From a virus (taxonomy: Duplodnaviria > Heunggongvirae > Uroviricota > Caudoviricetes), in IMG/VR virus record IMGVR_UViG_2554235125_000005, positions 1-29,539 of that record: DNA of 29,539 nt. One strand, given 5' to 3'. A model generated the notes under the pieces. The model had not been told where the DNA came from, did not search any database, and was given only the letters and a program-made list of their open reading frames with translations. Positions 5,169 through 29,539 of the stretch are shown piece by piece. Each line of letters begins with the position of its first letter. Within the stretch, counting starts at the first letter, position 1. The position numbers and the translations under genes are program-made.

Positions 5169-5183
5169 GTTGTTTCAGGCTCC

Positions 5184-6489: not shown

Positions 6490-6493
6490 AGCA

Positions 6494-11686: not shown

Positions 11687-12136
11687 TTAACCGTGAAGAT
11701 GGGAAATAATAATATTCAATATGTTGTTATTCTCCTCATGTGAAGCGCCGAGCAACGGGCGCGCCTCGTACTGCACATCCCGGGTGTTACGGTTTGGCCG
11801 GTCTTTTAGGCCGTACTGATGCACCCGCGCCATGCGCTGCACCTTGCTGGTAAAGTCCACCACCGCCGCACTGTCGCTGCCTTTGGCTTTCATAAAGCGA
11901 TTGGTGCGCAGTTTGGCGAACATTTCACGCTTAATCCGACCTTTCTTGCCCCGCACCGGCTGGCGCTTTCGTGCCGAATACGGAGTGCCGTCGGGTGCCT
12001 GCTGGCGCTTGATGCGCTGCTGCTGACTGGTACGCAACTTTTTCGCAATCTCAGCCGCCATTTGCCGACGCGCCGCCGGTGACAGGCTGGCAATCAGACC
12101 GGCAAGACGTTCCTGCAGTGCGGTTAACTCACTCAT
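11687..12136 (-). CDS. S: Tail completion / virion morphogenesis protein S
   Basis: 149-aa ORF with the conserved core PVRGKKGRIKREMFAKLRT...VQRMARVHQYGLKDRPNRN of the P2 gpS family, as I recall it. Confidence 0.75.
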   Translation of the reverse strand: MSELTALQERLAGLIASLSPAARRQMAAEIAKKLRTSQQQRIKRQQAPDGTPYSARKRQPVRGKKGRIKREMFAKLRTNRFMKAKGSDSAAVVDFTSKVQRMARVHQYGLKDRPNRNTRDVQYEARPLLGASHEENNNILNIIISHLHG

Positions 12137-12605
12137 CCCACTTACTCACCAGTTCGCCGTTAACGTACAGCTCGACCGGGCGCATCACCGGCTCTGGCAG
12201 CGGCGGTTCAGGGGCATAGCTGACATGCAGCGCGCCGTCGACCTCTTTGACGAGCGTGCGCTCGGTGAGTCTCAGGCTGATACTGATATCGAGCGAATCG
12301 TCGTTATTGATATCAATAATCCAGGTGAATCCTTTTTCCCGACCGTCATCGGTGGTCATAATGTCCGGCTGATGTTCACGCAGCCACGCCTGCACTGGCA
12401 CGAATATCAAATCGAGGTCGCCGGTGAAGTCGGTCACTACCACGTTAAGCACGTACACCTTTTCAAACGACAGCGAGCTCGCCACTCGAGAATCGGTATG
12501 GCCGTTGTCGGCAAACAGGCGCAGCATATCGGGGTTGTTTCGGAGCTGCGGCACGGCGTTAATCAGTGCTTTGCGCAGGCTTTTGTGCTTCTGCATCGAG
12601 TTCAT
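12129..12605 (-). CDS. R: Tail completion protein R
   Basis: 158-aa ORF upstream of S with conserved-looking segments (SLSFEKVYVLNVVVTDFTGDLDL, QPDIMTTDD). Exact start uncertain (M1 or M4). Confidence 0.75.
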   Translation of the reverse strand: MNSMQKHKSLRKALINAVPQLRNNPDMLRLFADNGHTDSRVASSLSFEKVYVLNVVVTDFTGDLDLIFVPVQAWLREHQPDIMTTDDGREKGFTWIIDINNDDSLDISISLRLTERTLVKEVDGALHVSYAPEPPLPEPVMRPVELYVNGELVSKWDE

Positions 12606-12849
12606 CCTGACAGTGTTTGACGGTTTTGACCTGCAGCGCGCAGGCGGTCAGCGCGCCCTCAAGACGGCGGATATCCGCGCTCAGGTCGCCATTGGTTTTC
12701 GGGTCACTTCCCGGCATCGGGCAAAGGCTCACCCTCGGGCATCCGTTGACCACAATCACCGGCACTGGCGCAGGCGGTGCGGGTGTGCAGCCGACGCACA
12801 ACGTCAGGCAGAGCAGCGTTATACCAGCGGCGAAAGGCTTCATTTTCAT
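12559..12849 (-). CDS. lysC: Outer-membrane spanin lipoprotein (LysC / Rz1-like)
   Basis: 96-aa ORF with signal peptide and lipobox-like LCVGC followed by Pro-rich TPAPPAPVPV. Starts inside lysB in another frame and extends beyond it, the P2 arrangement. Confidence 0.65.
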   Translation of the reverse strand: MKMKPFAAGITLLCLTLCVGCTPAPPAPVPVIVVNGCPRVSLCPMPGSDPKTNGDLSADIRRLEGALTACALQVKTVKHCQDELDAEAQKPAQSTD

Positions 12850-13117
12850 TAAGTAACCTCGTTATCGTCTGCTCACGGCGGCTGGCTTCCTCGCTGGCCT
12901 TTGCGAGCTGTTCACGCAGTGCCACCTGCGCAGATTCATTACGTCTGGCAAGCTGACCGGCAACACTGAGCTGATTTTTCAGCATGCCAATCGTCGTCTT
13001 TTGTTCGCTCGCGACGCGGTTTGCTGTCTCAAAGGAGCGGGATAAATTGCCGTTCTCATGGCGCAACCACAACATCCCGAGTACAGCTAGCACCAGAAGT
13101 GTAATCAGGATTTTCAT
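12704..13117 (-). CDS. lysB: Inner-membrane spanin (LysB / Rz-like)
   Basis: N-terminal TM helix MKILITLLVLAVLGMLWL then a charged coiled-coil region. Start ATG overlaps the K stop (ATGA). Confidence 0.65.
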   Translation of the reverse strand: MKILITLLVLAVLGMLWLRHENGNLSRSFETANRVASEQKTTIGMLKNQLSVAGQLARRNESAQVALREQLAKASEEASRREQTITRLLNENEAFRRWYNAALPDVVRRLHTRTACASAGDCGQRMPEGEPLPDAGK

Positions 13118-13611
13118 GCCATTACCCCGCCAGCGGTGCGCCATACGGTGACCAGTTTGTCGAGGCTGTGCTCACGCTGGCCGTAACCGGCACCCGGTAA
13201 CGACGCCCAGATATTGCGGCACCGTGAAATTGCCCGCTCAATACGCCCCGCCTTAATATCCTCAATGGCACCGCGCTCGCGGATTAACTGAATCGCAAGT
13301 TTGTCCTGCGACAACGGGCTGAAATCAGGCAATGCGAGTTGTTTCTGATAGTGCGGCCAGTAGAGATAAAGCTGCTGGTAACGCCCTGATGCCGTGGATT
13401 TTTCGCCGCGTCGATTAAACACTTTCGCTGGTCTGCCATGTGCGAAAGGGTGGTGGGTGTAGTCGGTGAAAATTTCCGGCTTGCCATCAAGACCAGTGAC
13501 AATGACGTCGTAACCACGATTTTTCGTCAGCGGATGCGTCGCCGTCCCTTCGGAATAGGCAAGCATGTCCAGAAACGCGGCGATATTCTGGTGAGTATTA
13601 ATTACCGGCAT
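13114..13611 (-). CDS. K: Endolysin (P2 gpK-type lysozyme)
   Basis: Internal start MPVINTHQNIAAFLDMLAYSEGT gives 165 aa, the size of P2 gpK. GGGGGA Shine-Dalgarno. The track ORF (242 aa) has an implausible Cys/Trp-rich N-terminal extension. Confidence 0.8.
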   Translation of the reverse strand: MPVINTHQNIAAFLDMLAYSEGTATHPLTKNRGYDVIVTGLDGKPEIFTDYTHHPFAHGRPAKVFNRRGEKSTASGRYQQLYLYWPHYQKQLALPDFSPLSQDKLAIQLIRERGAIEDIKAGRIERAISRCRNIWASLPGAGYGQREHSLDKLVTVWRTAGGVMA

Positions 13612-13894
13612 CGCTATCCCCCTGTTGTGACTTAAAGCGGCGCTGAATGGCGATTTCCACCACCTGATAACCTGCAATGCCGAGCATAGATCCAATCCCA
13701 CAAACGGCAGGCAGTGACATATCTGGAAACTGCACCAGAACAACACCGGCGACCATTGAAACAAAACCGCCGAGCAGCATGCGGCCGATAAACAGGCGCG
13801 GGGTAATGGGCTCACCACCCGCCAGCACTTTTCCGACAACAATCATCACGCCAATCACAAACAGTGACAGGACGCCTTTTTCCCCTTCTGTCAT
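13598..13894 (-). CDS. Y: Holin
   Basis: 98-aa ORF with hydrophobic helices (LSLFVIGVMIVVGKVLAGG, LLGGFVSMVAGVVLVQF) and a charged C-terminus, directly upstream of the endolysin gene. Confidence 0.75.
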   Translation of the reverse strand: MTEGEKGVLSLFVIGVMIVVGKVLAGGEPITPRLFIGRMLLGGFVSMVAGVVLVQFPDMSLPAVCGIGSMLGIAGYQVVEIAIQRRFKSQQGDSDAGN

Positions 13895-13897
13895 GGT

Positions 13898-14101
13898 TTA
13901 CTCCCAAAGGTTGATAGTTTCTGTTACGGGTGACGATGCCACGTCGGGCAGGTCAATCGTCGTGCCATGCGGCAGAATGACGCCCAGCTCAGACAGACCG
14001 GGATTAGCCTGCAGCACCGTCTCGACCACGCCCTCAGTGCGCCCGTAATACCGGGCGCAAAGCGCGTCGATGGTGTCGCCCTGCATCGCGTAGACTTTCA
14101 T
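13898..14101 (-). CDS. X: Tail protein X (LysM-like)
   Basis: Start refined to MKVYAMQGDTIDALCARYYG (67 aa), overlapping the L stop (ATGA). Confidence 0.7.
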   Translation of the reverse strand: MKVYAMQGDTIDALCARYYGRTEGVVETVLQANPGLSELGVILPHGTTIDLPDVASSPVTETINLWE

Positions 14102-14610
14102 CAGAGCTGACCCACGATGCAGCGCGGCTTGTCCTGCAGACGCGAGACCGACCAGCGCATATCCCGCCATAGGTCATCAATGGTGGTTTCGACGCTGTCG
14201 GCTTTTTTGTCACTCTTGCCCGTGGCCTCAACTCCGCGATAACGCTCATACAGGGTGGCGGTCGCCATCGCCGTCACGGCGCTGAGGTAGTGGAAAACTC
14301 GCACATTCTCGCCGTCGATTTCCTCGGCGTCAGGCACGTCGGCCAGTGTCTTAAACCCTGCGGCAATCTGGCGCAGCCGGTAGTCGTAAAGCTCCGCATT
14401 GGTTTCTGCCATGCCGGTCTTGATGGCGTTGCGCAGGCGCGCATCGGAAACCGTCTGCTCAAGGCGCATCAGTTCGCGCACCCGCTTCGGATCCACATCA
14501 GGGAAAAAGAACGTGTTTTTAATCACTGCGTCGCCCGTTTCCGGTGCGGGAATCACCACGCCCGGTATGTCCTGCGGTTCGTCGGGCTGATTCAGTATTA
14601 CTGTTGTCAT
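14101..14610 (-). CDS. L: Head completion / stabilisation protein L
   Basis: 169-aa ORF downstream of M; P2 gpL size and position. Confidence 0.8.
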   Translation of the reverse strand: MTTVILNQPDEPQDIPGVVIPAPETGDAVIKNTFFFPDVDPKRVRELMRLEQTVSDARLRNAIKTGMAETNAELYDYRLRQIAAGFKTLADVPDAEEIDGENVRVFHYLSAVTAMATATLYERYRGVEATGKSDKKADSVETTIDDLWRDMRWSVSRLQDKPRCIVGQL

Positions 14611-14703
14611 GACAACCTCATTAGGTTGGGCGGTGGACGCCGGTCGCCGTCAGGGGCAAAACCCGCTTTGACCGGCGTGCCGCCCGGCTCGGGGAGCGTT
14701 CAG

Positions 14704-15453
14704 TTAACCGGCGGTTTTTACCGCCTTTGGTGGACGCCCGCGCTTTGCCGCCGGTTTGTTGGCAGGTTTGCGCGTGCGCGGTTTAGTCGTTTTACGGGAT
14801 GCTGCCTCTGGCTTTGGCTTCAATGCGCGCTCCAGTCGCTCAATCTCTTTGCGCACACCGGCATTGCGGTCGAGCTGCATCGCGCGCTGAAACTGTGTCA
14901 GCGCTTCGGCGCTCTGACCGGCATCGCGCAGGGTCAGGCCGGTCACCTTATGCAGTCGAGCGCGCACCATATCGGGAACGTCAGCGCCGTCGGTCAGGCT
15001 GAGGGTGGTCAACAGTAATACGAGGTCGACAGGCTCACCGGCATCGCGCAGGCGCAGCGCGGCAAGCGCCACCTCCTCAACCAGCATGTAAGGCGTGGTG
15101 CGACGATGGTCAGAGGTGAGGCCGTATTTCAGCGCGTAGGTCGCAATTTCCAGCGCGCCAGCAATCTCACCGGCATCGAGACGCCACAGCATGACGGCCA
15201 TGACAATGTCATCCTGCGCACCACGGCCATCAGCCAGCACACCGGCGACCCACGGCGCATAGAACGGCAGCAGCTCGCGCTTTTTCTCGGCCTTACGCTC
15301 ATTTGAACGGATGTTTTTTAACGTGCGGCGGTCTTCGGCCAGCTTTACCAGCATCTGCTCATAGGCGGTTGCATGGCGCAGCGGGGCTTGTTCCCGCTGC
15401 GCGGCTTGAGAGGCCGAGACCCGCATCATGTGACGTTGTGCGGGGCTCGTCAT
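14704..15453 (-). CDS. M: Terminase small (endonuclease) subunit M
   Basis: Start refined to MTSPAQRHMMRVSASQAAQ (about 249 aa) with GGAGA Shine-Dalgarno. Basic C-terminal tail (KPRTRKPANKPAAKRGRPPK). Confidence 0.8.
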   Translation of the reverse strand: MTSPAQRHMMRVSASQAAQREQAPLRHATAYEQMLVKLAEDRRTLKNIRSNERKAEKKRELLPFYAPWVAGVLADGRGAQDDIVMAVMLWRLDAGEIAGALEIATYALKYGLTSDHRRTTPYMLVEEVALAALRLRDAGEPVDLVLLLTTLSLTDGADVPDMVRARLHKVTGLTLRDAGQSAEALTQFQRAMQLDRNAGVRKEIERLERALKPKPEAASRKTTKPRTRKPANKPAAKRGRPPKAVKTAG

Positions 15454-15457
15454 GGGC

Positions 15458-16525
15458 TTACTCTCCGCTTTCCGGTACTGCAGGTGCGGTGAAATCACCC
15501 AGGGTGATATTTTCCAGCAGGCACCCGGCGGCATACGCCTCGACCACATAGTCGATGTTCATCGACTCGTAGTTTTCCACACGGTCTTTTTTCGGGTTCT
15601 CATCAATGCTGCGGCGATGGCTCTCATCCATGAAGTAGACAGAGAGGTTTTCCAGCGTGGTCACGAATACCGCATTCGCCGGGAAATACGGCACACGCAC
15701 GGCAGGCAGGTTGCCGATGCGCTTCTGGCTGATGATGATATCCGCCGCGAGCGACTCGGTGTTTTCCTGCTGCTTGTTCACCAGCGGGAAATATTTGTCG
15801 GCCAGCAGCTTACGGCCAACGATAGCAACGAGTTTCGGGTCATCCTGATAAATCTCGTCAATCAGGGTGTTGGTACCGTCCATCACCAGTGCGTCGAGGT
15901 TCTCATAGTCGCCATTCTTACCGACGCGAATCACGTCAGAAATAACGCTACCGCCCTCAGCGGTGATTTTGCTCATCACGCGCGCCGGGGCTTCGTTGCG
16001 GTACTTCTGCAGCCAGCCGACGGCCACATCTTGCAGCATCGGGTTTTTGCTGCGGTCTGAGGTGTCAGCACGGGTGGTACCGTTGAACCCGGCCATGATG
16101 AAATCGAGCGCCTGACGCTGGACAATGGCGTCGCGAATACGGCGCTGGAAGTCCTGGAAACGCGCCCACAGGTCGAGGCGTTTATAGGTCAGGTGGAAGT
16201 CAAAGTTAATCTGGTTGCACTCGTACTTGTTGGACTCAAGCGCGGTGAAATCTGCGGTCTGGCGCTCCTTGTCACCTGATGTGTCGGTCGTGCTGGCGAT
16301 GGTGCCGGTCACACCGACGCCGATTTTCTCGCCCTTCATTTCTGCGACCGGCAGAATGTTAATCATCTGCAGAAATGCGGATGACGCCTGCACTGTGTTC
16401 ATCAGCGTTTGCGTGACGGACGGCTCAACGGTGAATTTCTTGCTGACATCATCAACGCTGATGCCGTTCAGTTTGGCGAGCTGGGTCAGATAGGCATTGA
16501 ACTTAAAACGGGTTTCCTGACGCAT
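15458..16525 (-). CDS. N: Major capsid protein N
   Basis: Start refined to MRQETRFKFNAYLTQLAKLNG with AGGAA Shine-Dalgarno; the track start is a GTG. Strong resemblance to remembered P2 gpN across the whole length. Confidence 0.9.
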   Translation of the reverse strand: MRQETRFKFNAYLTQLAKLNGISVDDVSKKFTVEPSVTQTLMNTVQASSAFLQMINILPVAEMKGEKIGVGVTGTIASTTDTSGDKERQTADFTALESNKYECNQINFDFHLTYKRLDLWARFQDFQRRIRDAIVQRQALDFIMAGFNGTTRADTSDRSKNPMLQDVAVGWLQKYRNEAPARVMSKITAEGGSVISDVIRVGKNGDYENLDALVMDGTNTLIDEIYQDDPKLVAIVGRKLLADKYFPLVNKQQENTESLAADIIISQKRIGNLPAVRVPYFPANAVFVTTLENLSVYFMDESHRRSIDENPKKDRVENYESMNIDYVVEAYAAGCLLENITLGDFTAPAVPESGE

Positions 16526-16600
16526 AGTATTTCCTGTTTGAATTAATCGGTTAGTCACAGCATCGGGCGGGGTTACCGCCCGGTTTAGGTCTGCGGTTTA

Positions 16601-17455
16601 TCAGCAGTCAGTCAGCAGCTCATCGCCACCACCGCCGCTGGCTTTCGTGCGTCGCGGCTGGCTGAAACTTTCTGTTTTGTCGAGGGTGGTTTTCAGAGTG
16701 GAAAATGCCTGGCTGGTTTCTTCAATCTTGCCGGTCAGTTCCTGTTTGAAAGTGGCAAACGCGGTTTCCATAGCGGAAAGACGCTCGTCCTGTTTGGTCA
16801 GGTTAGTCTGCACATGTTCGCTGACGGTGGTCACCGCTTCATGCACATCATTCAGGCGCGCATCGTCGCTGACCTGCTTACGGCTGAAAATGGCTTTCAC
16901 CTTATCCGCCAGGCTGTTGAGTACCGTGTCAGGAACGTCTTCAAATTCCAACTCGGCCAGCGTGGCAGCGGAAAAGACGTTTTCAGGGTTGGCCTTAAAG
17001 CGCTGCAGAGGGTTGTGTTTCGCGTTGCGGCAGAATTCGAGGTATTCAGTGCCGAGGCTCGCCGGGTCATCGGTGACCGCAAGACCGACGAGGTAGCATT
17101 TGCCGGTATTGGCAAAATTCGGCTGAATTTCCATTGAGGTGTAGACCTTCTGCAATTTTTTATTCATCGCAATCAGGTCGTCTGTCGGGGTGATTCTGGC
17201 GAACAACGCCCATTTGCCGTTAAGCGCAGAATCGTCGTCAATCTTCTCGGCTTTCAGCTCGACCACATCGCCTAAGCGTTTGAAATCGCCATCGGGAAAG
17301 AGGCCGCGAATATGCTCAAGGTTAATACGGCAACCGTAGACACGAGGGTCAAACGATTCGGCCATTTCCTGAATATCGTTACCGCTGATAATGCGGCCGT
17401 CGCAGGTGTCACCTTCGACGCCGATGCGAAAGAATTTTGAGACTTTTTTTGCCAT
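16601..17455 (-). CDS. O: Capsid scaffolding protein O
   Basis: 284 aa, MAKKVSKFFRIGVEGDTCDGR...GGGGDELLTDC; near-collinear with remembered P2 gpO. Confidence 0.85.
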   Translation of the reverse strand: MAKKVSKFFRIGVEGDTCDGRIISGNDIQEMAESFDPRVYGCRINLEHIRGLFPDGDFKRLGDVVELKAEKIDDDSALNGKWALFARITPTDDLIAMNKKLQKVYTSMEIQPNFANTGKCYLVGLAVTDDPASLGTEYLEFCRNAKHNPLQRFKANPENVFSAATLAELEFEDVPDTVLNSLADKVKAIFSRKQVSDDARLNDVHEAVTTVSEHVQTNLTKQDERLSAMETAFATFKQELTGKIEETSQAFSTLKTTLDKTESFSQPRRTKASGGGGDELLTDC

Positions 17456-17620
17456 TGTCAGGAGTCCTGAGGTTGGGGTTACTGGTCAACGCCAGTTTCC
17501 AGACTCAGGACACGCCAGACCACCAATGACGACTGGACAACCGCCCACACAACAGCACCTTAGCGAATCACTGACGGCCATTAAGTAGCCTTGCCCTGAA
17601 TCCACTACGGCGAGGCATCA
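17456..17620. promoter_or_regulatory. Divergent late promoter region between O (minus) and P (plus)
   Basis: 165-bp intergenic region between divergent capsid and terminase operons, as in P2. No TGT-N12-ACA activator site found by eye. Confidence 0.4.
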
Positions 17621-19390
17621 ATGACCATTTCCACCGATACAACCTTGTTGCATGACCCGCGACGGCAGGCATCGCTGCTTTACTGGCAGGGTTTTTCCGT
17701 GCCACAGATTGCCGAAATGCTGCAGGTCAAGCGCCCGACCGTGCAGAGCTGGAAGCAGCGCGACTGCTGGGACGGTATCGCACCGATTTCCCGCGTTGAA
17801 AGCAGCCTTGAGGCGCGCCTGATTCAGCTCATCGCCAAGCCGCAAAAGTCAGGCGGCGACTTCAAAGAGATTGACCTGCTCGGGCGACAAATTGAGCGAC
17901 TGGCGCGCGTTAACCGCTACAGCCAGACCGGCAACGAGGTCGACCTTAACCCCAATGTTGCCAATCGCAACAAGGGCGAGCGTAAGAAGCCGAAAAAGAA
18001 TTTTTTCAGCGATGAGGCTATCGAGAAACTGGATGAATTATTTTTCGACCAGTCTTTCGAGTACCAGTTGCAGTGGTACCGTGCAGGGCTGGAACACCGT
18101 ATTCGCGACATTCTCAAATCCCGACAGATTGGCGCGACGTTCTATTTTTCCCGCGAGGCACTGCTGCGCGCGCTCAAGACCGGTCATAACCAAATCTTTC
18201 TGTCGGCCAGTAAAACGCAGGCTTACGTGTTCCGCGAATACATCATCCAGTTTGCGCGACTGGTCGACGTCGACCTGACAGGCGACCCGATTGTCATCGG
18301 CAACAACGGCGCAAAGCTGATTTTTCTCGGTACCAATTCCAACACCGCGCAGAGCCATAACGGCGACCTGTATGTCGATGAAATATTCTGGATCCCGAAT
18401 TTTCAGAAGCTGCGCAAAGTCGCCTCGGGCATGGCCTCTCAGAAGCACCTGCGCTCAACCTACTTTTCTACACCTTCCACGCTGGCGCACGGCGCTTACC
18501 CCTTCTGGTCTGGCGAGCTGTTCAACAAGGGGCGCAGCCGTATTGCCGACCGCATCGAAATCGACATCAGTCACAACGCGCTCGTCGGTGGCCAGCTCTG
18601 CGACGATGGCCAGTGGCGGCAGATTGTCACCATTGAGGACGCCCTTGCCGGTGGCTGCACCCTGTTCGACCTCGACCAGCTCAAACGCGAAAACAGTGAT
18701 GAGGATTTTAAAAACCTGTTTATGTGCGAGTTTGTCGACGATAAAGCGTCGGTATTCCCGTTCGAGGAGCTGCAGCGCTGCATGGTCGACGTGATGGAAG
18801 AATGGGAGGACTTTGCCCCGTTCGCCGACCATCCGTTCGGCTCGCGTCCTGTCTGGGTTGGCTACGACCCGTCACACACCGGCGACAGTGCCGGGTGCGT
18901 CGTACTCGCACCGCCGGTGGTCTCGGGTGGCAAGTTCCGCATGCTGGAGCGTCAGCAGTGGAAAGGCATGGACTTTGCTGCGCAGGCAGAGGGCATCCGC
19001 AAACTGACCGAGAAATACAACGTCGAATACATCGGCATTGACGCAACCGGCCTCGGTCTCGGCGTGTTCCAGTTGGTGCGCTCATTCTACCCGGCGGCGC
19101 GCGGCATCCGTTACACGCCTGAGATGAAAACCGCGATGGTGCTCAAGGCAAAAGACACCATTCGCCGTGGCTGTCTGGAGTATGACGCCGGTGCGACCGA
19201 CGTCACGCAGTCGTTTATGTCCATCCGCAAAACTATGACCAGCAGCGGGCGCAGCGCCACGTACGAGGCCAGCCGCACCGAGGAAGCCAGTCACGCCGAT
19301 ATCGCATGGGCGACTATGCACGCCCTGTTAAACGAACCGCTTTCCGCCGGTAGCGGCATGCAGCCTAAATCTATTCTGGAGTTCAACTAA
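17621..19390 (+). CDS. P: Terminase large (ATPase) subunit P
   Basis: 589 aa, P2 gpP size; divergent from O and followed by Q. Confidence 0.9.
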   Translation: MTISTDTTLLHDPRRQASLLYWQGFSVPQIAEMLQVKRPTVQSWKQRDCWDGIAPISRVESSLEARLIQLIAKPQKSGGDFKEIDLLGRQIERLARVNRYSQTGNEVDLNPNVANRNKGERKKPKKNFFSDEAIEKLDELFFDQSFEYQLQWYRAGLEHRIRDILKSRQIGATFYFSREALLRALKTGHNQIFLSASKTQAYVFREYIIQFARLVDVDLTGDPIVIGNNGAKLIFLGTNSNTAQSHNGDLYVDEIFWIPNFQKLRKVASGMASQKHLRSTYFSTPSTLAHGAYPFWSGELFNKGRSRIADRIEIDISHNALVGGQLCDDGQWRQIVTIEDALAGGCTLFDLDQLKRENSDEDFKNLFMCEFVDDKASVFPFEELQRCMVDVMEEWEDFAPFADHPFGSRPVWVGYDPSHTGDSAGCVVLAPPVVSGGKFRMLERQQWKGMDFAAQAEGIRKLTEKYNVEYIGIDATGLGLGVFQLVRSFYPAARGIRYTPEMKTAMVLKAKDTIRRGCLEYDAGATDVTQSFMSIRKTMTSSGRSATYEASRTEEASHADIAWATMHALLNEPLSAGSGMQPKSILEFN

Positions 19391-19391
19391 A

Positions 19392-20438
19392 ATGGGTAAG
19401 CAAAAATCCCGTAAAGCCGCTGCGCAGAAGGCCAGCAAGCCACAACAACTTACCGCCAGCGCACCGCCAAAAACGACAGCGTTCACCTTCGGCGAGCCGG
19501 TGCCGGTACTCGATAAGCGCGATATTCTGGATTACGTCGAGTGCATCAGTAACGGCAAATGGTACGAGCCGCCAGTAAGCTTCTCCGGGCTGGCAAAGAG
19601 CCTGCGCTCTGCCGTGCATCACAGCTCACCGATTTATGTTAAGCGCAACGTACTCGCAAGCACCTACATTCCGCACCCGTTGCTATCCCGTCAGGATTTC
19701 AGCCGTTTTGCACTCGACTATCTGGTTTTCGGCAATGCCTTTCTTGAGCAGCGCAACAGCGTCACCGGCCAGTTAATCAAGCTACTGGCCTCACCGGCCA
19801 AATACACCCGGCGCGGGGTCGACGACTCGATTTTCTGGTTTGTGGAAAACTTCACGCGGCCGCATGAGTTCGCGCCTGATACCGTGTTTCACCTGCTTGA
19901 GCCCGACATTAATCAGGAAATTTACGGCCTGCCTGAATATCTCAGCGCGCTTAATTCCGCCTGGCTGAATGAAGCTGCGACGCTGTTCCGCCGCAAGTAT
20001 TACCAGAACGGAGCGCATGCTGGTTACATCATGTATGTGACCGACCCGGCGCAGAGCGCGACCGACGTCGAATCGCTGCGCGAGGCGATGCGCAACTCGA
20101 AAGGGCTCGGCAACTTTAAGAACCTGTTTTTCTACGCACCCGGCGGAAAACCGGACGGCATCAAAATCGTGCCACTGAGCGAGGTCGCCACAAAGGATGA
20201 CTTTTTCAACATTAAGAAAGCCAGCGCTGCCGACCTGATGGACGCGCACCGCGTGCCGTTCCAGCTTATGGGCGGCAAGCCCGAGAATATCGGTTCACTC
20301 GGTGACGTTGAGAAGGTGGCAAAGGTATTCGTTCGTAACGAGCTGTCACCCCTGCAGGACAGGTTCAGGGAGGTAAACGACTGGCTCGGCATGGAGGTCA
20401 TCAAGTTTAAAGAGTACACCCTCGAAAACCCGGAATAA
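19392..20438 (+). CDS. Q: Portal protein Q
   Basis: 348 aa, P2 gpQ size, immediately after P. Confidence 0.9.
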   Translation: MGKQKSRKAAAQKASKPQQLTASAPPKTTAFTFGEPVPVLDKRDILDYVECISNGKWYEPPVSFSGLAKSLRSAVHHSSPIYVKRNVLASTYIPHPLLSRQDFSRFALDYLVFGNAFLEQRNSVTGQLIKLLASPAKYTRRGVDDSIFWFVENFTRPHEFAPDTVFHLLEPDINQEIYGLPEYLSALNSAWLNEAATLFRRKYYQNGAHAGYIMYVTDPAQSATDVESLREAMRNSKGLGNFKNLFFYAPGGKPDGIKIVPLSEVATKDDFFNIKKASAADLMDAHRVPFQLMGGKPENIGSLGDVEKVAKVFVRNELSPLQDRFREVNDWLGMEVIKFKEYTLENPE

Positions 20439-20480
20439 CTCCCCTCAAGCCGCCATTATGGCGGCTATTACATAAAAAAC

Positions 20481-21704
20481 TTAAACTTCGTCTTTACTAT
20501 TTATCATTCTGATATAACTAGGCATACGAGGATCTGAAATTTTATATACCCCTCTAGCTGCCTTTGTAAGGATCGCTCCTTTATCAGCCCTAGTAAAACG
20601 CCCAATATAGTTACTCATGTGATAGTTACTTAATGAAATTCCCGTATCTTCTCGAATTTGGGTAATCCATTCTTGAATGGTAAATTTATTATCTTTGAAT
20701 TTGGCTGCTGCATAAAGTATTGATGGATAAACATCAGTCCTGGATGAAGTAACTGCGTTCTCATAGTCTCTTTTAAGTTGTCCCTCGGTGTTTACTACTG
20801 CTCGCCTCAAAGCTTCAGGAAGAATGTCGGAATTTACTTCGCTTTTACCAGATGATAATACTATATCTGCAGATTCCTTTCCTATAAGATGCGTGAAATA
20901 TGGAAAACCATTGCTAATTTCAACTATAGAGTTTTTAACGTCACTACTAAATGTTATACCCAAGCCACGCTCGCCAGTCTCAATTATTTCATGTAAATAT
21001 TTATCTTCAATTCGAGAGAGTTGAATTTCATGGAGGCATCTGTTCACAGAAGGATGACCTGCTATCAACGAAGCACCGTCACTGGAAATGCCAACTAATA
21101 AAATCTTCAAAGGACTATTGGAATCGCTAAGTTGTTTAACAAACTCAGCGACATCATGCTTAACGTCATCACTGACAACATCAAATTCATCTATTAAAAG
21201 TATTGCATTCAATTCTTCAAGCGCAAAACAGGCTTTACTTGGAGTAAGATCTTCTTTTTCTATCGTGATTTTCTCTTCGGCAGAAACGTCCGCTCTAAAT
21301 AATTTCAAAACATTAAGGCCAACACCTGCTTTTTTAGTAGTCTCTCTTTTATTTGCGGCATATTCACTATCAATAAATATAGCTGGCCTTGCAATAATAT
21401 CTTTGAATTTTGTTTTTTTATCACATCGCACTACAAAAATATTACTAGGTAACACACCTTCATTTTTCCCTCCCTCTAAAGTAGATAAGGCGAGCGAGCT
21501 TTTCCCAATCCCTCTCTCTCCATAAATCATACAATGCTTGCCATCAGTAGTTAAGGTATCGAGGATATGTTCCACCTCGTTATTACGTCCTTTCAAATGG
21601 GTAGGTGCCTCAATAGGTTTAGAGGGTGTAAAATATAAATCAACATTTTTAATTTTATTTTTTTTTGCTTTAAATTTACTGAATATGCTGCTAGTAGTCG
21701 TCAT
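20481..21704 (-). CDS. P-loop NTPase of unknown function (AAA+/STAND-like with C-terminal winged-helix-like region), cargo gene
   Basis: 407-aa ORF with Walker A GERGIGKS and Walker B ILLIDEFD about 100 residues apart. No ABC signature. AGGA Shine-Dalgarno. Strongly AT-rich codon usage. Sits between portal gene and cos. Confidence 0.6.
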   Translation of the reverse strand: MTTTSSIFSKFKAKKNKIKNVDLYFTPSKPIEAPTHLKGRNNEVEHILDTLTTDGKHCMIYGERGIGKSSLALSTLEGGKNEGVLPSNIFVVRCDKKTKFKDIIARPAIFIDSEYAANKRETTKKAGVGLNVLKLFRADVSAEEKITIEKEDLTPSKACFALEELNAILLIDEFDVVSDDVKHDVAEFVKQLSDSNSPLKILLVGISSDGASLIAGHPSVNRCLHEIQLSRIEDKYLHEIIETGERGLGITFSSDVKNSIVEISNGFPYFTHLIGKESADIVLSSGKSEVNSDILPEALRRAVVNTEGQLKRDYENAVTSSRTDVYPSILYAAAKFKDNKFTIQEWITQIREDTGISLSNYHMSNYIGRFTRADKGAILTKAARGVYKISDPRMPSYIRMINSKDEV

Positions 21705-21821
21705 TTCCGCATCCTATTGCAAAAAGTTAACTTATTAAAAGAAAAATTCAGAGTAAGTGCAATACCTATTATTCGGAGCTTGTCACAAGATTCACTACTG
21801 AAGTGTAACCGCTGGCGCGCA

Positions 21822-21840
21822 ATGCTTTCCCCGCCACGCC
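21822..21840 (-). other. cos: cos-type cohesive-end site (19-mer)
   Basis: Plus strand ATGCTTTCCCCGCCACGCC is the reverse complement of GGCGTGGCGGGGAAAGCAT, which matches the P2/186 19-nt cohesive end as I recall it. Expected position for a prophage (between Q and the A side). Confidence 0.6.
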
Positions 21841-21999
21841 TGCCCGCTTTATGGGGCGGTTTTAATGCAGTTGCATGACTACTCTGGATCCGCTTCAGCT
21901 CTGGCGGCGCACGGCCAGAACGGGCAATCCCGGCGCATGCAAAACCATGCACCTGTTGCATGCACGACTAAAAAACGGGGTAATCGCGGAAAAATGGCA

Positions 22000-22025
22000 T
22001 AAAAAACCGGCATTCACGGTGCCGG
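22000..22025 (-). terminator. Candidate intrinsic terminator ending the SOS-operon transcript before cos (minus strand)
   Basis: Plus strand AAAAAACCGGCATTCACGGTGCCGG. On the minus strand a 6-bp GC-rich stem (CCGGCA/TGCCGG), 7-nt loop, then UUUUUUAU. Confidence 0.45.
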
Positions 22026-22119
22026 TTTGGTGTCAATCTGGTAACCAGCTAACGCCTCGCGGGGCTCGTTGTTCAACCCCGCCAGCACTGAAAGCAAGTT
22101 TCAGCACCGGCGGCGTTTG

Positions 22120-22356
22120 CTATCGTCGGCGGGGCGGCGGAATAATCGGACCTCTCGCCGGTGTAAACGCCTCAATTTTCGGATTACTAATATCGTACAG
22201 CCTGCCGTAATTATCCCTGACTATTTCGGCGCACCCGACCAGCTCGGCGGGTGACAAATTCTCATTGACCATTATCCGCTGCAGGCGATGAACGATAGCC
22301 ATTAACTTAATATTTCTTGTCTGGTGCTGCGGTATTTCACTTGGTAGTCGATGCAT
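22120..22356 (-). CDS. Hypothetical protein (78 aa)
   Basis: ORF with GAGGGTGA upstream of its ATG and a Pro/Arg-rich C-terminus. Flanked by two related 60-bp repeats. No family recognised; could be non-coding. Confidence 0.3.
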   Translation of the reverse strand: MHRLPSEIPQHQTRNIKLMAIVHRLQRIMVNENLSPAELVGCAEIVRDNYGRLYDISNPKIEAFTPARGPIIPPPRRR

Positions 22357-22555
22357 ACTATCACCCTCGATGAATTTTAATCAGTGCCGTCAAAACGCCA
22401 CTATAAAACCCTCTCAGATCATGCTTCATTCATCACGGGCGTGTCATCAATAGCACATTGAGAAGTTTTGAAAGGCAGGACTAAAGCCTCGTGGGCTCGT
22501 TACTCAACCCCGTCGACGCAAAAAGCTAGTTTTTGCGCCAACACGGTTATCATGT

Positions 22556-22786
22556 TTAACGCCAGCTATCGTCTTCCCAAATCTCTTGTAATATGCCGCC
22601 TAATGTTTCTTTGTCTGCCTCTTTATCGAATCCGATAACCTCTACACCAGTCATTGACCCTTTCTTGACGTTAACTTTTATTGTAGGAAAAACGCATTGT
22701 ACTCGATGTGTTATTTCATTCTGAAAAGCATCAATGATCTGTTGCCCTAATTTTTGTTCTTTATCCAACGTGATATTGATTCTCAT
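22556..22786 (-). CDS. dinI: DinI-like protein (possible C-terminal module of a Tum-type antirepressor)
   Basis: 76 aa, MRINITLDKEQ...GGILQEIWEDDSWR; resembles E. coli DinI in length and in the N-terminal MRI.. and C-terminal ILQE.WE..D.W pattern, from memory. Downstream of a LexA box. Confidence 0.7.
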   Translation of the reverse strand: MRINITLDKEQKLGQQIIDAFQNEITHRVQCVFPTIKVNVKKGSMTGVEVIGFDKEADKETLGGILQEIWEDDSWR

Positions 22787-22789
22787 AAT

Positions 22790-22972
22790 CTAATCAGCCT
22801 TATAAAAATTATCATCTTCGGTTTCGTTATTCTCGCTGTTTGCTAGGTCTGCAATGAGAGTGAGCGCGAGCTTTAAGTCTGATGGCTTGCAGTTTGCAAT
22901 CAGAGATACCTCGGCAATAAATTGCACACAAGCCCACTTTTGCTGCGTTCGGCTGAAATGTTCGTCAACCAT
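22790..22972 (-). CDS. Small SOS-induced protein (60 aa), possible N-terminal part of a split Tum-like antirepressor
   Basis: ATG preceded by AGGAGG and a consensus LexA box. Same frame as the DinI-like ORF, separated only by TAG plus one codon. Confidence 0.5.
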   Translation of the reverse strand: MVDEHFSRTQQKWACVQFIAEVSLIANCKPSDLKLALTLIADLANSENNETEDDNFYKAD

Positions 22973-22991
22973 GGAATCCCTCCTACAGGGT

Positions 22992-23011
22992 TACTGTATG
23001 TTTATACAGTA
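22992..23011 (-). promoter_or_regulatory. LexA operator (SOS box) overlapping a candidate promoter -10
   Basis: TACTGTATGTTTATACAGTA fits CTGT-N8-ACAG with AT-rich spacer. On the minus strand TATAAA lies inside the box, about 25 nt upstream of AGGAGG and ATG. Confidence 0.75.
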
Positions 23012-23085
23012 GCACGTATTGGTAAAAGATGGGAAGAAAAAAAACGAATAGGGCGATTGTCGTATGTACATGATATGGATATAAA

Positions 23086-25308
23086 TTACTCTGATATTGG
23101 TTTTGATGCTTCAGCTATCGCAGCAACACGATTAAGGATTTTCCTGGCTTTAGCCTCATGCGATGGTGCTGTGGAAAATATTTCTCCTTTGGCCGTTCCG
23201 CGTAGCCATTTACCATCAAAACAACTTTTACCACCGGCCATCAAGTGCAGAGCTTCGCCCCGGCTGATATTAATGCCGGTTGTCAGATGTATCTCTTCGA
23301 TAGTTTTCGCTATAGCTGCGTTTTGCTCATCCGTTCCGTGTATGAATTTTCGCCGTGCTGCTGGCTTTTGCTTCCTGAGTCGGTTGGTTAGCTCTCGTCT
23401 TTCGCGTCGACTCAGGGGCTTTGTCAAATCCAGTACCGGTGGATCGTTTTCGCTTCCCGTACAGTTATTGACAGAACTCCGAGGGACGGCTTTGCCGTCC
23501 TGAAGGTCAACGGCCAAATCAACAGCATGCTTCGGAACAATCTTCCACTGAGTGAGTCGGGTTAATATCGGGCTCCCTGCACCTATGGAGGAATCGTAGA
23601 CCCCCTTAATACATACCGTTTCCTCACCGTACTGATTAAGCTCGGTACGCGGTTCATACAGTGTGCGCACCTGTAAATCATCGCGACGGACAAACGGTCC
23701 ACCCTGCGCATTAACATACCCAGCCCAGTCACCAGCGTCGGCGGCATCATGGACGGCGGCAAACTCAACGCTCAGTCCGTGCGCGGTTTCGGTATCAGCG
23801 AGGCGACGCAACTCACGGTAAACCGTCACCGGCGCACCACCGATAAACTGAAACTGACGGATGTGCCAGCGCGAAGCCCATGCTGAAACGGCGGGGGCTG
23901 TCTCTTTCAGCAGTTCACCACTTTCATCATCGGTTTCACCATCGAGAGCATAACCGTCGATATTTTTTGAGATGTATTTAGCAACATAGCCGGTTGCGCT
24001 GCCTTTCTCCGGGTCAATGGACTCGGCGTGGAAACGTGCTTTTTTGGCCTTATCGCTTTTCAGTTCGTGGCGGTCTTCTTTACACGCGTATTTACGTACG
24101 ATGGAGCGAACATATTCAACATCTTCCGGCAGCATGAACATCAGCATGTGCCAGTGTGGAGTACCGTCGTGATGGGGCTCGGCAACACGAATACCGAAAA
24201 TACGGACATCTTCCCGATGCAGTTTGGCACGGATACGCGCCCAGATACCGGTTAGATAGTTTTGCGTGTCAGCCGGGCTGGCACCGCTCCATTTGCTGTT
24301 ACGGTAACCGGCTTTAGTCGTGGCGTGATATTTCGACGGCGCGGTCAGAGTGTAAAACTCACCGACATAACCGAGCTCATTACAGATGTTTTCAAACCCA
24401 CGGATGCGAGTCATGAGCTCACAGCGGCGAATCGCAGGGTTAGCAACTGAGCCATCATATTTTTCAATCAGGCTGATACGGTTGCCGTCTTCGTCTTCGA
24501 GATCCAGACCTTTGAGAAATTCACGAGTTCGGCGCTTTTGTTCACGCCAGTCAGTCACGCAGTTTTTACTCGCATAGGTGTTTTTTTTCTTGCTGACGTT
24601 GCCGACTGCAATTTGCAGGTGTTCGCGCCACGTAGCTGCAACTCGGCGCAAACGACCACGCCACCACCCATCGTTAAACATCTTGGCGATAGCCGGTGCG
24701 ATTTCATCCGCGCCGACATATTTTTTTGCAACCCGATCCCAATGGGGTGGGATAACGTTGAATTGGAGGGAAATAAAGCCAGCACGATTATACCAGGTGT
24801 ACAGCGTTTTAAGCTCGCCGAATCCGTGGTCATTAATGTTGGCAAGTTCACCACGAATGAAATCAGCAATATCGGCGGCCAACAGGTCAACATCAGCGCG
24901 CGACATATCCGGGAGGCGGTTATATCGGGCGACCATATTAACCATGCGTGACGCCAGATATTGCATAAGCTGGGTATCAAAATGACTTCCAAAAACAGAG
25001 GTTGATACCTTGCTGTTGATACCCGCGCATTCGTATTTTTTTGCGACCAATTCAAGACGCGGCAATGCCTTTTTGCAGAAGCTGATCAAAAAGGCATTGG
25101 CTCGTTGAATACCCTGATTTTGCTCCAGCACTGCAGCAGTGCGATAAACATCTAACCGCACGCAGTCGGGCTGGAGAGAAAGCACCTTTTTCGCATGCAG
25201 CAAAGCCGCGAACATACGGTCGCGGCGATGCTGTTGCTCATAAGTAAGGTATGGGCTGGAGATTGCCGACCGTGGGACGTTCCACGGATAAGCGAATTGA
25301 ACAGCCAA
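23086..25308 (-). CDS. A: Replication initiation protein A (rolling-circle nickase)
   Basis: 740 aa, near the P2 gpA size as I recall it. Contains HWHMLMF and GYVAKYISK motifs resembling the metal-binding and catalytic-tyrosine motifs of rolling-circle initiators. Confidence 0.85.
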   Translation of the reverse strand: MAVQFAYPWNVPRSAISSPYLTYEQQHRRDRMFAALLHAKKVLSLQPDCVRLDVYRTAAVLEQNQGIQRANAFLISFCKKALPRLELVAKKYECAGINSKVSTSVFGSHFDTQLMQYLASRMVNMVARYNRLPDMSRADVDLLAADIADFIRGELANINDHGFGELKTLYTWYNRAGFISLQFNVIPPHWDRVAKKYVGADEIAPAIAKMFNDGWWRGRLRRVAATWREHLQIAVGNVSKKKNTYASKNCVTDWREQKRRTREFLKGLDLEDEDGNRISLIEKYDGSVANPAIRRCELMTRIRGFENICNELGYVGEFYTLTAPSKYHATTKAGYRNSKWSGASPADTQNYLTGIWARIRAKLHREDVRIFGIRVAEPHHDGTPHWHMLMFMLPEDVEYVRSIVRKYACKEDRHELKSDKAKKARFHAESIDPEKGSATGYVAKYISKNIDGYALDGETDDESGELLKETAPAVSAWASRWHIRQFQFIGGAPVTVYRELRRLADTETAHGLSVEFAAVHDAADAGDWAGYVNAQGGPFVRRDDLQVRTLYEPRTELNQYGEETVCIKGVYDSSIGAGSPILTRLTQWKIVPKHAVDLAVDLQDGKAVPRSSVNNCTGSENDPPVLDLTKPLSRRERRELTNRLRKQKPAARRKFIHGTDEQNAAIAKTIEEIHLTTGINISRGEALHLMAGGKSCFDGKWLRGTAKGEIFSTAPSHEAKARKILNRVAAIAEASKPISE

Positions 25309-27283: not shown

Positions 27284-28120
27284 ATGGCTAAATTTGGAGA
27301 TGGTGCGGCTCCGGCTATCGAAAGAATCCTTTCGGCTTATGGACTTAGCTCGCAAAAAGAACTTGGCGAAAAACTTGGTATTTATGCCAACAACATAAGC
27401 AGTTGGCTTGCCAGAGATAGCGTTCCGGGCAATGTATTTGTTGAATGTGCTATTGAAACGGGCGCAGATATCGGATGGTTAGTGACAGGGGAGCTTGCAA
27501 AAGCAAACTCTCCACGTGCGACCCTGAAGGGCAAAGAGCTTTATGAAAAGGTCATGGCTTCAGGTGGTAAACCTGTTCTGAGACGCATCCTTGATGCTTA
27601 CGGTTTTTCTATGCAAAAGGAGCTGGGTGATTTACTCGGTATATCATCTGGAACAATTAGCACATGGGTTCGGCGTGATTTTTTCCCAGGTGATGTAGTT
27701 GTTACTTGTGCTCTTGATACTGGTGTTTCGCTGGAATGGTTAGCAACCGGCAAGGGGCAAATGCGAACTAACAGAGAAATGGTCACATCAAGTTTTTCAA
27801 TTAAAAAATTTCGCCTTGAAGCGGGTGAGCTTAAGGACGCTGGCGAATGGCATCCAGACCCCTCGATGATACCCTCTGACTCAGAGGAGTTGATTTTTGT
27901 TGAAGGTGTTGGAGCCTCTTGGCTTGTCAACCGTTCTGCTTCGAACATAAGTAATGGGCGTTGGTTAATTGATATTGACGGCGCTCTTGATGTTTTTGAT
28001 GTAATTCGTCTTCCCGGCGGAAAAGTCAGGTTGTCAAATAAGTCTGCTGAGTTTGAATGCAGCATTACAGATATCACACCAGTAGGTGCTGTAATTTTCA
28101 CATTGGAAAAACACGTATAA
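27284..28120 (+). CDS. Immunity repressor, 186 CI-like, with tandemly duplicated N-terminal DNA-binding domain
   Basis: 278 aa. Two homologous about 60-aa segments (residues about 10-70 and 97-160, pattern I.RIL.AYG.S.QKELG..LGI....IS.W..RD..PG.V.V.CA..TG....WL.TG) followed by a C-terminal domain. No GDSM-type peptidase motif seen. Confidence 0.7.
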   Translation: MAKFGDGAAPAIERILSAYGLSSQKELGEKLGIYANNISSWLARDSVPGNVFVECAIETGADIGWLVTGELAKANSPRATLKGKELYEKVMASGGKPVLRRILDAYGFSMQKELGDLLGISSGTISTWVRRDFFPGDVVVTCALDTGVSLEWLATGKGQMRTNREMVTSSFSIKKFRLEAGELKDAGEWHPDPSMIPSDSEELIFVEGVGASWLVNRSASNISNGRWLIDIDGALDVFDVIRLPGGKVRLSNKSAEFECSITDITPVGAVIFTLEKHV

Positions 28121-28128
28121 GGGACATT

Positions 28129-28467
28129 ATGAAACGTAAGCTTTTTTTAGCTTTATTTCTTTCACTTTCTTTCGGTGCATCAGCCGCTGAAAAAACACAG
28201 GATTTAGACGGTGCTAAGTTTGGTGATGATTGGCCGTTAACTTTTGAAAAAGCTACGGTGTCTTGTGTTAATGGTAGATATGCCTTTGTGTACGACAAAG
28301 CAACAGATGACCGATACCCATTAAATGGGTTTGCTATTGATGGTGTAAAGTCTGGAAAGCTTGAGGGGAGCGATATTGATACTGTTTGGAAAGATAGCCC
28401 GGATTATGAAGGAGTAAAAATTCCTTTGGATCCCGTAATGGATGCTGCGACAGCACTTTGCGAATGA
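28129..28467 (+). CDS. Secreted/periplasmic protein of unknown function (lysogenic conversion candidate)
   Basis: Start refined to MKRKLFLALFLSLSFGASAAEK (112 aa): typical Sec signal peptide with AXA site, two Cys in the mature part, AAGGGA Shine-Dalgarno. Lies between repressor and integrase on the same strand. Confidence 0.55.
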   Translation: MKRKLFLALFLSLSFGASAAEKTQDLDGAKFGDDWPLTFEKATVSCVNGRYAFVYDKATDDRYPLNGFAIDGVKSGKLEGSDIDTVWKDSPDYEGVKIPLDPVMDAATALCE

Positions 28468-28489: not shown

Positions 28490-29539
28490 ATGACTATAAG
28501 TAAGCAAAAAAATGGCAAATGGTTATGTGAGCTTTATCCTAATGGGCGAGAAGGGCGGCGAATACGTCGGCAATTCAATACCAAAGGTGAGGCCGAGGCA
28601 TTCGAAGCATTTACGAAAAGCGAGAGTGAAGATAAGCCGTGGCTCGGCAAGAAAGAAGACCGCCGACGCTTAAGTGAGATTATCCAGCTTTGGCATAATT
28701 TACATGGACAGGCGTTGGTCGCCAGTAAGTCGCGGTTAGCTAAGCTTCAAATTGTATGTAACGGGTTGGGCGACCCTATTGCATCTCGTCTTACCGCTAA
28801 AGATTGGGCTCATTACCGTGACCGTCGATTACGTGGCGAAATAGACAACGGCTATCACAAAGACCCGGCGAAATGGATCGCCAAACCTATAACTGTCAAT
28901 CGCGAACAGCAATACCTCGAAGCTGTGTTCAATGAACTGCGGCGATTAGGTGAATGGGGTTTACCCAATCCACTGGACGGGATTCGCGTATTCAAAGAAG
29001 CTGAGAAAGAAATGTCCTGGCTAACTTTGTCTCAGCTCCCGGAGCTGTTCCGAGCCTGTGAACAATATGGCAAAGAAAATCTTACTATGATTGTTAAGGT
29101 GTGTCTGGCTACTGGTGCACGATGGGGAGAAGCTGAGAGACTTACACGTCCCCAACTTTCCCCCTGCAAGCTGACTTTCACCAAAACCAAAGGTAAGAAG
29201 AATCGCACGGTTCCGATTCCTAAATGGCTGTATGACGAGTTGTCCGAACGTCAGGGAAGAATGTTCAAGCCCTGCTATCAGGACTTTAAGAAGATGCTCA
29301 AACTTACAAACATTGAATTGACTGAAGGGCAGAAAACGCACGTTTTACGTCACACCTTTGGTGCGCATTTTATGATGAATGGCGGCAATATCCTTGTACT
29401 CCAGAAGATACTCGGTCACGCAAATATTCGTGAAACAATGAAGTATGCGCACTTTGCTCCTGACCATCTTGAACAAGCTGTCACCTTGAATCCGTTGTCA
29501 CTGTGTATTGGCGACAACGTGGCGGCAGAGGTTGCGTAA
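28490..29539 (+). CDS. int: Tyrosine integrase (P2/186 family)
   Basis: Start refined to MTISKQKNGKWLCELYPNG (349 aa). Catalytic-domain motifs ATGARWGEAE, HVLRHTF and MKYAHF. Stop codon at 29537-29539, so attL should lie just beyond the window. Confidence 0.9.
   Translation: MTISKQKNGKWLCELYPNGREGRRIRRQFNTKGEAEAFEAFTKSESEDKPWLGKKEDRRRLSEIIQLWHNLHGQALVASKSRLAKLQIVCNGLGDPIASRLTAKDWAHYRDRRLRGEIDNGYHKDPAKWIAKPITVNREQQYLEAVFNELRRLGEWGLPNPLDGIRVFKEAEKEMSWLTLSQLPELFRACEQYGKENLTMIVKVCLATGARWGEAERLTRPQLSPCKLTFTKTKGKKNRTVPIPKWLYDELSERQGRMFKPCYQDFKKMLKLTNIELTEGQKTHVLRHTFGAHFMMNGGNILVLQKILGHANIRETMKYAHFAPDHLEQAVTLNPLSLCIGDNVAAEVA

Follow-up and report, generated by a model that had tools for sequence, protein, structure and literature searches.

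A 186-type cos site in an Escherichia coli prophage, with a stand-alone ATPase gene in the cargo slot on its portal side

Foreign DNA next to the cohesive end site (cos) is documented in P2-like phages and their satellites. The interval between gpA and gpQ, which lies beside cos and holds old and tin in P2, is described as a defence hotspot in Rousset et al. 2022 (PMC9122126) and in a 2026 NAR paper (PMC13586616), and the hotspot passages of both papers treat the two sides of cos together. In 186-related prophages the stretch from cos to the terminator of the packaging genes has been exchanged for a retron, Ec67 or Ec86 (Dodd and Egan 1996, Virology 219:115, as related in PMC5694545 and PMC6868368). 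The satellite P4 also has a hotspot adjacent to its cos, with gop, beta and cII as cargo (hotspot passages of Rousset et al. 2022, PMC9122126). The record of phage phiCTX (NC_003278.1) gives, in order, cosL, annotated as left cohesive end, at 1-21, the ctx promoter, ctx at 362-1222 (+), terminators, and Q at 1417-2469 (-). For the cos site itself, a core of 55 bp has been described (Ziermann and Calendar 1990, as cited in PMC5694545 and PMC2231350).

The window, by which we mean the whole stretch of 29,539 nucleotides analysed here, is a 186-like (Peduoviridae) prophage of E. coli that extends from gpD to the integrase in the orientation opposite to the standard P2/186 map; its last ORF is a tyrosine integrase. 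The gene order, A - DinI/tum - cos - (cargo) - Q - P - O - N - M, is collinear with that of 186. In a BLAST comparison with the complete 186 genome, the homologous blocks keep the 186 order: they begin at gene D (window 24-6439), continue across the genes for tail, lysis and head (11748-19390, 93% identity) and reach the portal gene (19452-20474). Beyond a gap they resume with the 186 right end (21841-22119), followed by tum (22556-22785), gene A (22992-25294) and the early genes. Divergence from 186 is seen in the tail-fibre and immunity/integrase regions. Pfam recognized the terminase P (589 aa, equal in length to its 186 counterpart), the portal protein Q, the scaffold O, gpA and a DinI/Tum-like protein, and P, Q, O, N and A are full length in the window. 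The genes that flank the site or are expected to act on it are as follows:

14704 to 15549, minus strand: small terminase (endonuclease) subunit, homologue of P2 M and 186 R, within the block of 93% identity (186 nt 1961-9598)
17621 to 19390, plus strand: large terminase, homologue of P2 P and the expected cutter of cos (Pfam Terminase_5, Terminase_6N and Terminase_6C)
19392 to 20438, plus strand: portal gene, homologue of P2 Q and 186 W (Pfam Phage_portal; 93% nucleotide identity to 186 160-1182)
22556 to 22786, minus strand: DinI/Tum-like gene (Pfam DinI, 6.6e-18; 72% identity to 186 tum, 29293-29522)
23086 to 25308, minus strand: replication initiator gpA (Pfam Phage_GPA, 5e-131; 82.6% identity to 186 A), the right boundary of the variable interval that contains cos

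The ORF at 14704-15549 is counted from its first ATG, and the real start is probably further in; its counterpart in E. coli EC6622 is intact and annotated as 'terminase endonuclease subunit'. Between 20400 and 21900 the window is 100% identical to both EC6622 and E. coli TK3888. In EC6622 the equivalent prophage is flanked by rplS and yfiB, and none of its morphogenetic genes is flagged as a pseudogene; at ~30.9 kb it is close to the 30.6 kb of 186, so its size is compatible with packaging. By these sequence features, the prophage is apparently intact.

Other parts of the prophage also yielded observations. Two ORFs of 194 and 140 aa (10652-11658, +) are oriented against the tail genes around them and fall between an S-like tail-completion gene and the baseplate gene V, which is the position of the orf30 slot of P2. 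Neither matched Pfam or PADLOC, both are hypothetical proteins in EC6622, and the pair is probably a second moron. Just ~130 bp (6362-6494) separate the tail-sheath and tail-fibre assembly genes (the Z/fun slot), where EC6622 (L138, 8303-9207) has ~845 bp extra with a truncated recombinase and two hypothetical genes. Since EC6622 is identical near cos and differs at this slot, the two prophages share their cos-side cargo and differ at another hotspot. A CI-type repressor ORF (27284-28120, +) encodes 278 aa with two Phage_CI_repr HTH matches, compared with 192 aa in 186, and a DUF2511 ORF (28057-28467, +) lies between cI and int.

The cos site is marked by the 19-mer ATGCTTTCCCCGCCACGCC at 21822-21840 (+), which occurs once in the window; when up to 3 mismatches were allowed there was still one site, against 0.04 expected in shuffles. 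An earlier note on this DNA had stated that the reverse complement matches the 186-type cohesive end and that P2 differs from it at two positions, and alignment with the termini of the P2 and 186 genomes showed both statements to be correct. The reverse complement, GGCGTGGCGGGGAAAGCAT, is identical at 19/19 positions to bases 1-19 of phage 186 (NC_001317.1), which are annotated there as 'cos; cohesive end', with the top strand cut at the 5' end and the bottom strand at the 3' end. The cosL of P2 (NC_001895.1, 1-19), GGCGAGGCGGGGAAAGCAC, agrees with the window 19-mer at 17/19 positions, with mismatches at positions 5 and 19. The match to 186 extends past the 19-mer, reaching 33 bp in total on one side and ~280 bp on the other, and phages EtG and SEN1 have, as their bases 1-33, exactly the sequence of window 21808-21840. 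The elements of the site are:

21822 to 21840, minus strand: cohesive end of 19 nt, the equivalent of cosN, reading GGCGTGGCGGGGAAAGCAT and identical to the 186 cos
21815 to 21869, minus strand: conserved cos core of 55 bp, delimited by aligning the window, without gaps, to the joined ends of P2, 186 and P4
21808 to 21821, minus strand: 14-bp remnant of a 186-type left arm (TGCGCGCCAGCGGT), matching 186 nt 20-33 at 13/14 positions, after which homology stops
21841 to 22119, minus strand: right arm of cos, abutting the 19-mer, with 85.7% identity to 186 nt 30342-30624 (right end)

By sequence identity, then, the 19-mer is confirmed as the P2/186-type cos site of a 186-like prophage, at which homology predicts cleavage. 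The staggered nicks are predicted to fall at 21841/21840 on the minus strand and at 21821/21822 on the plus strand, positions that we infer from the 186 annotation. The site lies between the gpA-side region and Q/P, collinear with 186, and it fixes the orientation of the prophage as had been claimed.

The 55-bp core is complete in the window and matches the P2/P4/186 consensus. Besides the 19-mer it comprises 29 bp on the right arm (21841-21869) and, on the left arm, the 7 bp TGCGCGC (21815-21821); the parts common to P2, 186, P4 and the window are the right arm TGCATTAAAACCGCCCC..AAGCGGGC., the 19-mer, and the left arm [T/C]GCGCGC. Scanning IMG/VR with a pattern of the 19-mer followed by YGCGCGC identified at least 120 loci, with 111 distinct cos regions among the matches listed; positions in the pattern are invariant by construction, and the flanks alone are informative on conservation. 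Across these 111 regions, most positions of the right arm from about -35 to -1 were conserved at ~90% or more, and conservation of the left arm collapsed past +7. Strong conservation on the right arm and its loss past +7 on the left point to the gpA side as the main location of the information recognized by the terminase, which would leave the portal side free to vary beyond a few base pairs.

Part of the conserved right-arm core, at 21840-21859, reads on the plus strand as a terminator-like hairpin with a T-run (CTGCCCGCTTTATGGGGCGG TTTTAATGCA); on this strand one passes from the portal side across cos. In P2 the inverted repeat of the right arm is perfect (CCGCCC/GGGCGG), and in 186 it is weaker. 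The hairpin could be a transcription terminator or merely an element of terminase recognition.

Further along the gpA-side arm, the terminator scan called a t95b-like terminator on the minus strand at 21946-21962, and 186 has t95b annotated at the equivalent place. The orf97 of 186 is absent, with ~440 bp in its place (22119-22556); a 78-aa hypothetical ORF at 22120-22356 (-) replaces it (WP_019842450.1 in EC6622; no family match). Two predicted ORFs across or beside cos, at 21701-21961 (-) and 21875-22210 (+), were rejected as spurious, having no family matches and being unannotated in RefSeq.

On the portal side, the gap between the Q stop codon and cos is 1,383 bp in the window, as against 176 bp in 186 and 167 bp in P2. 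The difference is accounted for by a replacement, whose features are:

20475 to 21807, no strand: foreign cargo segment of 1,333 bp, replacing ~126 bp of 186 (nt ~34-159)
20481 to 21704, minus strand: cargo gene for a 407-aa stand-alone AAA+ ATPase with a C-terminal winged helix (Pfam nSTAND1/AAA_22)
20448 to 20466, no strand: retained terminator hairpin of the portal operon (AGCCGCCATAATGGCGGCT), equivalent to tW of 186, with which it aligns (AGCCGCCATGCTGGCGGCT)

The cos-side junction is the low-coordinate end of the 14-bp remnant (21807/21808), in which the sole mismatch to 186 is at the tenth position (A in 186). The Q-proximal junction, at ~20474/20475, is marked by the retained hairpin, with 186 homology resuming at ~20474, just outside it. 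The T-tract at this hairpin is weakened by two substitutions (TATTACAT in the window versus TTTTTCAT in 186), and the terminator scan made no call here. The segment has a GC content of 36% (0.34-0.37) compared with ~57% (0.55-0.59) in its flanks, and BLAST found no homology between it and 186. An Rfam scan of 20300-23200 (E<=0.1) gave no match. No terminal inverted or direct repeats flanking the cargo were found across 20400-22000, so there is no sign of a transposon or of site-specific insertion. A hexamer, TTACAC, is common to the junctions of the window and of a retron-bearing IMG/VR locus (L124); we rejected it as chance, since other cargo loci have unrelated junction sequences.

The earlier note had placed an ATPase gene between cos and Q, and that gene, ~1.2 kb long (20481-21704, -), indeed separates them within the 1,383-bp gap. 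It had also called the site displaced from the portal gene. As a statement of distance this stands, but nothing about the arrangement is unusual: the gap is a documented cargo slot, and the cos core is untouched.

The ATPase gene is the one gene on the segment; it reads from cos towards Q and is convergent with Q and P. Pfam matched nSTAND1 over residues 39-262 (34.9 bits against a cut-off of 27.1) and also AAA_22, and the RefSeq names for the protein are 'AAA family ATPase' or 'nSTAND1 domain-containing NTPase'. PADLOC gave one weak match, to the candidate PDC-S59 (1.8e-7, 28.6 bits); for the same protein nothing in NCBIfam rose above cut-off, and a sequence search of the PDB gave no match. 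The Walker A residue K68 is invariant in the alignment of homologues. An AlphaFold (AF2) model using 30 homologues (pLDDT 87, pTM 0.81) combines an AAA+ core and a helical lid with a winged helix at the C terminus, and the best PDB structures in a fold search with this model were the archaeal ATPases 2qen/2fna, Cdc6/Orc1, RuvB and RFC subunits. STAND proteins of the Avs/NLR-like kind are tripartite, with an N-terminal effector, an NTPase and a C-terminal repeat sensor. We rejected assignment of the ATPase as an Avs-type STAND defence protein: it has 407 aa, and its model is without an effector or repeat domain. In a sigma-70 promoter scan upstream of the gene, no site reached threshold. By eye, a weak TTGCAC-17-TTTAAT is present upstream, below the scan threshold and partly conserved in the Enterobacter locus described below.

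The ATPase family is widespread, with 416 matches that reach Bacteroidota and Desulfobacterota; this cassette was present in 4 of 5,426 complete E. coli genomes and in none of the isolated phages in the collection searched. The supplements of Rousset 2022 returned no match to the ATPase by RefSeq protein accessions, by 'nSTAND' or by CP096587 (the EC6622 record). A homologue with 87% identity is carried by a P2-like prophage of Enterobacter roggenkampii (L128), where the order cos-ATPase-Q is also found. The cos of this prophage (4933-4951), GGCGAGGCGGGGATAGCAC, is of the P2 type with A14T, and its left junction is at ~+7 and not +14. The window and the Enterobacter locus form a single alignment at 77% nucleotide identity that takes in cos, the cargo, Q, P and O; the arrangement is therefore old and has been kept while the phages diverged.

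More divergent homologues are found in other surroundings. The gene in Klebsiella (59% identity; L133-L136, 5001-6224) lies between the antiterminator Q and the holin of lambdoid prophages, an interval that is a classical moron slot. The gene in Aeromonas (72% identity; L129-L132) occupies an isolated chromosomal site between genes for a metallo-beta-lactamase-fold protein and an amidase, and distant homologues are present in the actinophages Kevin1 and Cashline. Judged by these genomic contexts, the ATPase gene behaves as a mobile accessory gene and not as a packaging factor. It is probably a moron-type passenger that serves the lysogen, for example by phage exclusion, a role suggested by its contexts together with the weak PADLOC match.

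To place the portal-side insert among related phages, we used 97 P2-like IMG/VR loci that have both cos and Q among the first 120 matches listed; these loci are not de-replicated, and the frequencies are rough. The cos-Q gaps among these matches were distributed as follows:

157-200 bp (canonical): 83 of 97 loci
200-600 bp: 5 of 97 loci
600 bp or more: 9 of 97 loci

On the other side of cos, the median gpA-cos gap was 2,563 bp in the loci among the matches listed. The large portal-side inserts in these loci had 34-40% GC, and 8 of the 9 large-insert loci had their left junction at +7 to +14; in L118 the canonical left arm was kept and the insert lay further in. Cargoes in the 9 loci included DRT2 (L034), a retron type I-C RT-Toprim (L124, left junction at +7), an ABC/OLD-like ATPase pair (L018), PDC-S02 (L028) and a HEC-02/PD-T4-4-like ATPase. 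Q-proximal junctions in the portal-side cargo loci among the matches listed were heterogeneous and often at a terminator hairpin, which favours illegitimate or flank-homology exchange over site-specific insertion. The gpA-side gap had a median of 1,166 bp where portal-side cargo was present (n=6) and 2,683 bp where it was not (n=57; Mann-Whitney p=0.037), in a small sample of the matches listed that is not de-replicated. The shorter gpA side may reflect a trade-off in genome size under cos packaging.

These contexts allow a broader, tentative reading, which we consider possible but rather doubtful: that the 407-aa Cdc6/Orc1-like ATPase would be a single-gene anti-phage (or anti-satellite) system, that it would travel as a moron between the hotspots of temperate phages, and that the portal side of cos would be a defence sub-hotspot in its own right. 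The hotspots concerned may be the cos-Q interval of P2-like phages, the Q-holin interval of lambdoid phages and possibly a central region of the actinophages. If the portal side is such a sub-hotspot, its junctions there would fall precisely on the border of the core recognized by the terminase.

For the site itself, the reading we favour, and regard as very probable on comparison with 186, is that the prophage's own terminase cuts at 21822-21840 to produce 19-nt 5' overhangs, with 33 bp of phage sequence ahead of the ATPase cassette at the left end and the 186-like arm forming the right end. Once the prophage had excised and replicated, its gpM and gpP homologues would recognize the conserved core, mostly on the gpA-side arm, and make nicks staggered by 19 nt, leaving 5' overhangs on the packaged molecule. 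From the left, this molecule would read GGCGTGGCGGGGAAAGCAT-TGCGCGCCAGCGGT and then directly the 1.3-kb horizontally acquired cassette, so that a read from this end is predicted to begin GGCGTGGCGGGGAAAGCAT-TGCGCGCCAGCGGTTACAC; on the right it would close with the 186-like arm, including its t95b-like terminator. The cassette would have taken the place of a dispensable spacer of ~126 bp between the cos core and the terminator hairpin of the portal operon. The earlier suggestion that the left virion end begins with cargo holds as a prediction, in which 19 nt and 14 bp of phage sequence come first. What the sequences show directly is the identity to the 186 site, the synteny, a complete core, an insert of foreign composition and repeated use of the slot for cargo; cleavage at the site, the viability of the phage and the role of the cargo are inferred.

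The main competitor holds that cos is a relic, either because the prophage is defective or because insertion of the cargo crippled packaging through loss of left-arm sequence needed by a 186-type terminase or damage to the portal-operon terminator; a virion end would then not form at this site. The equivalent of 186 nt 34-159 is indeed missing from the window and the T-tract of the portal terminator is weakened; moreover, few genomes have this very cassette (4 of 5,426 complete E. coli genomes), and none of the phage isolates searched does. The missing stretch, however, lies in a part of the left arm that past +7 is unconserved, both among the P2-like cos regions in the matches listed and in P4, and the conserved core is intact. 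Foreign cargo also occupies this slot in phiCTX and in retron-bearing 186-like prophages, the Enterobacter prophage keeps the arrangement at ~77% nucleotide identity, and every morphogenetic ORF of the window is full length. With this evidence on the other side, we consider a relic unlikely. A chance match, or a 19-mer that belongs to a P4-like satellite or some other element, has next to no probability. P4-like satellites do carry a nearly identical core, but here the flanks are gpA/tum and Q/P and not psu/int, so that synteny refutes a satellite origin; as for chance, the match is exact at 19/19 positions and is prolonged in the register of 186, to 33 bp in one direction and ~280 bp in the opposite one, and shuffles gave 0.04 matches even at 3 mismatches.

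A further alternative concerns the cargo: the ATPase might serve the phage at cos, where its position would then be functional; it could, for instance, be an AAA+ protein that binds DNA and modulates packaging, or one that hinders the packaging of satellites. Its AAA+ and winged-helix fold does resemble the DNA-binding initiators and loaders Cdc6/Orc1, RuvB and RFC, and the gene adjoins cos in two diverged phages. We nevertheless think this highly improbable: homologues occupy unrelated slots (the lambdoid Q-holin interval in Klebsiella, an isolated chromosomal site in Aeromonas), the GC content is foreign, and most P2-like phages are without the gene, 83 of the 97 loci among the matches listed having the canonical gap of 157-200 bp.

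For this prophage, the cos site fixes the predicted virion ends and the orientation of the map, and the largest accessory gene of the prophage is predicted to lie at the very left tip of the DNA that is packaged. Apart from annotation, the locus is of modest value: it adds one more uncharacterized cargo to a hotspot known since 1996, and comparative evidence that conservation on the portal side reaches no further than ~7-14 bp from the cohesive end. The ATPase could merit inclusion in defence screens.

Compared with 186 itself, the site has the identical 19 nt, 13/14 of the next left-arm base pairs and a right arm ~86% identical over 280 bp, and in both phages it lies between the tum/orf97 region and the portal gene. 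The two differ in the spacer between cos and the portal stop codon, 176 bp in 186, where the window has 1,333 bp of cargo in place of nt ~34-159, and on the gpA-side arm, which has orf97 in 186 and the 78-aa ORF in the window. The retrons Ec67 and Ec86, and likewise locus L124, resemble the window in having foreign DNA in the spacer between cos and the terminator of the packaging/portal operon; their cargo is a retron, whereas the window has a single AAA+/winged-helix ATPase, and the left junction of L124 is at +7 instead of +14. The layout of phiCTX is that of the window, with cosL, a cargo gene reading towards Q, a terminator, and convergent Q and P. It differs in being a Pseudomonas phage with a 21-nt cohesive end, a toxin as cargo and ~340 bp between cos and the cargo gene, and ctx has its own annotated promoter. 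In P4 the cos core is shared and cargo sits on the left arm a few base pairs beyond TGCGCGC/CGCGCGC; P4 is packaged by the P2 terminase and on the left arm has no sequence in common with P2 beyond +7. P4 is, however, a satellite without portal or terminase genes, and its cargo is bounded by int and not by Q. The variable DNA of the window also falls inside the published gpA-gpQ hotspot interval that adjoins cos, but P2 and most loci carry their cargo on the gpA side, and the portal-side position of the window is that of a minority (9 of 97 loci among the matches listed). The window thus has foreign DNA in place of the spacer from cos core to terminator, and related phages carry different cargoes there. 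Both the cos site and the cargo slot are already known, the latter since 1996, and the new element is the uncharacterized ATPase passenger alone.
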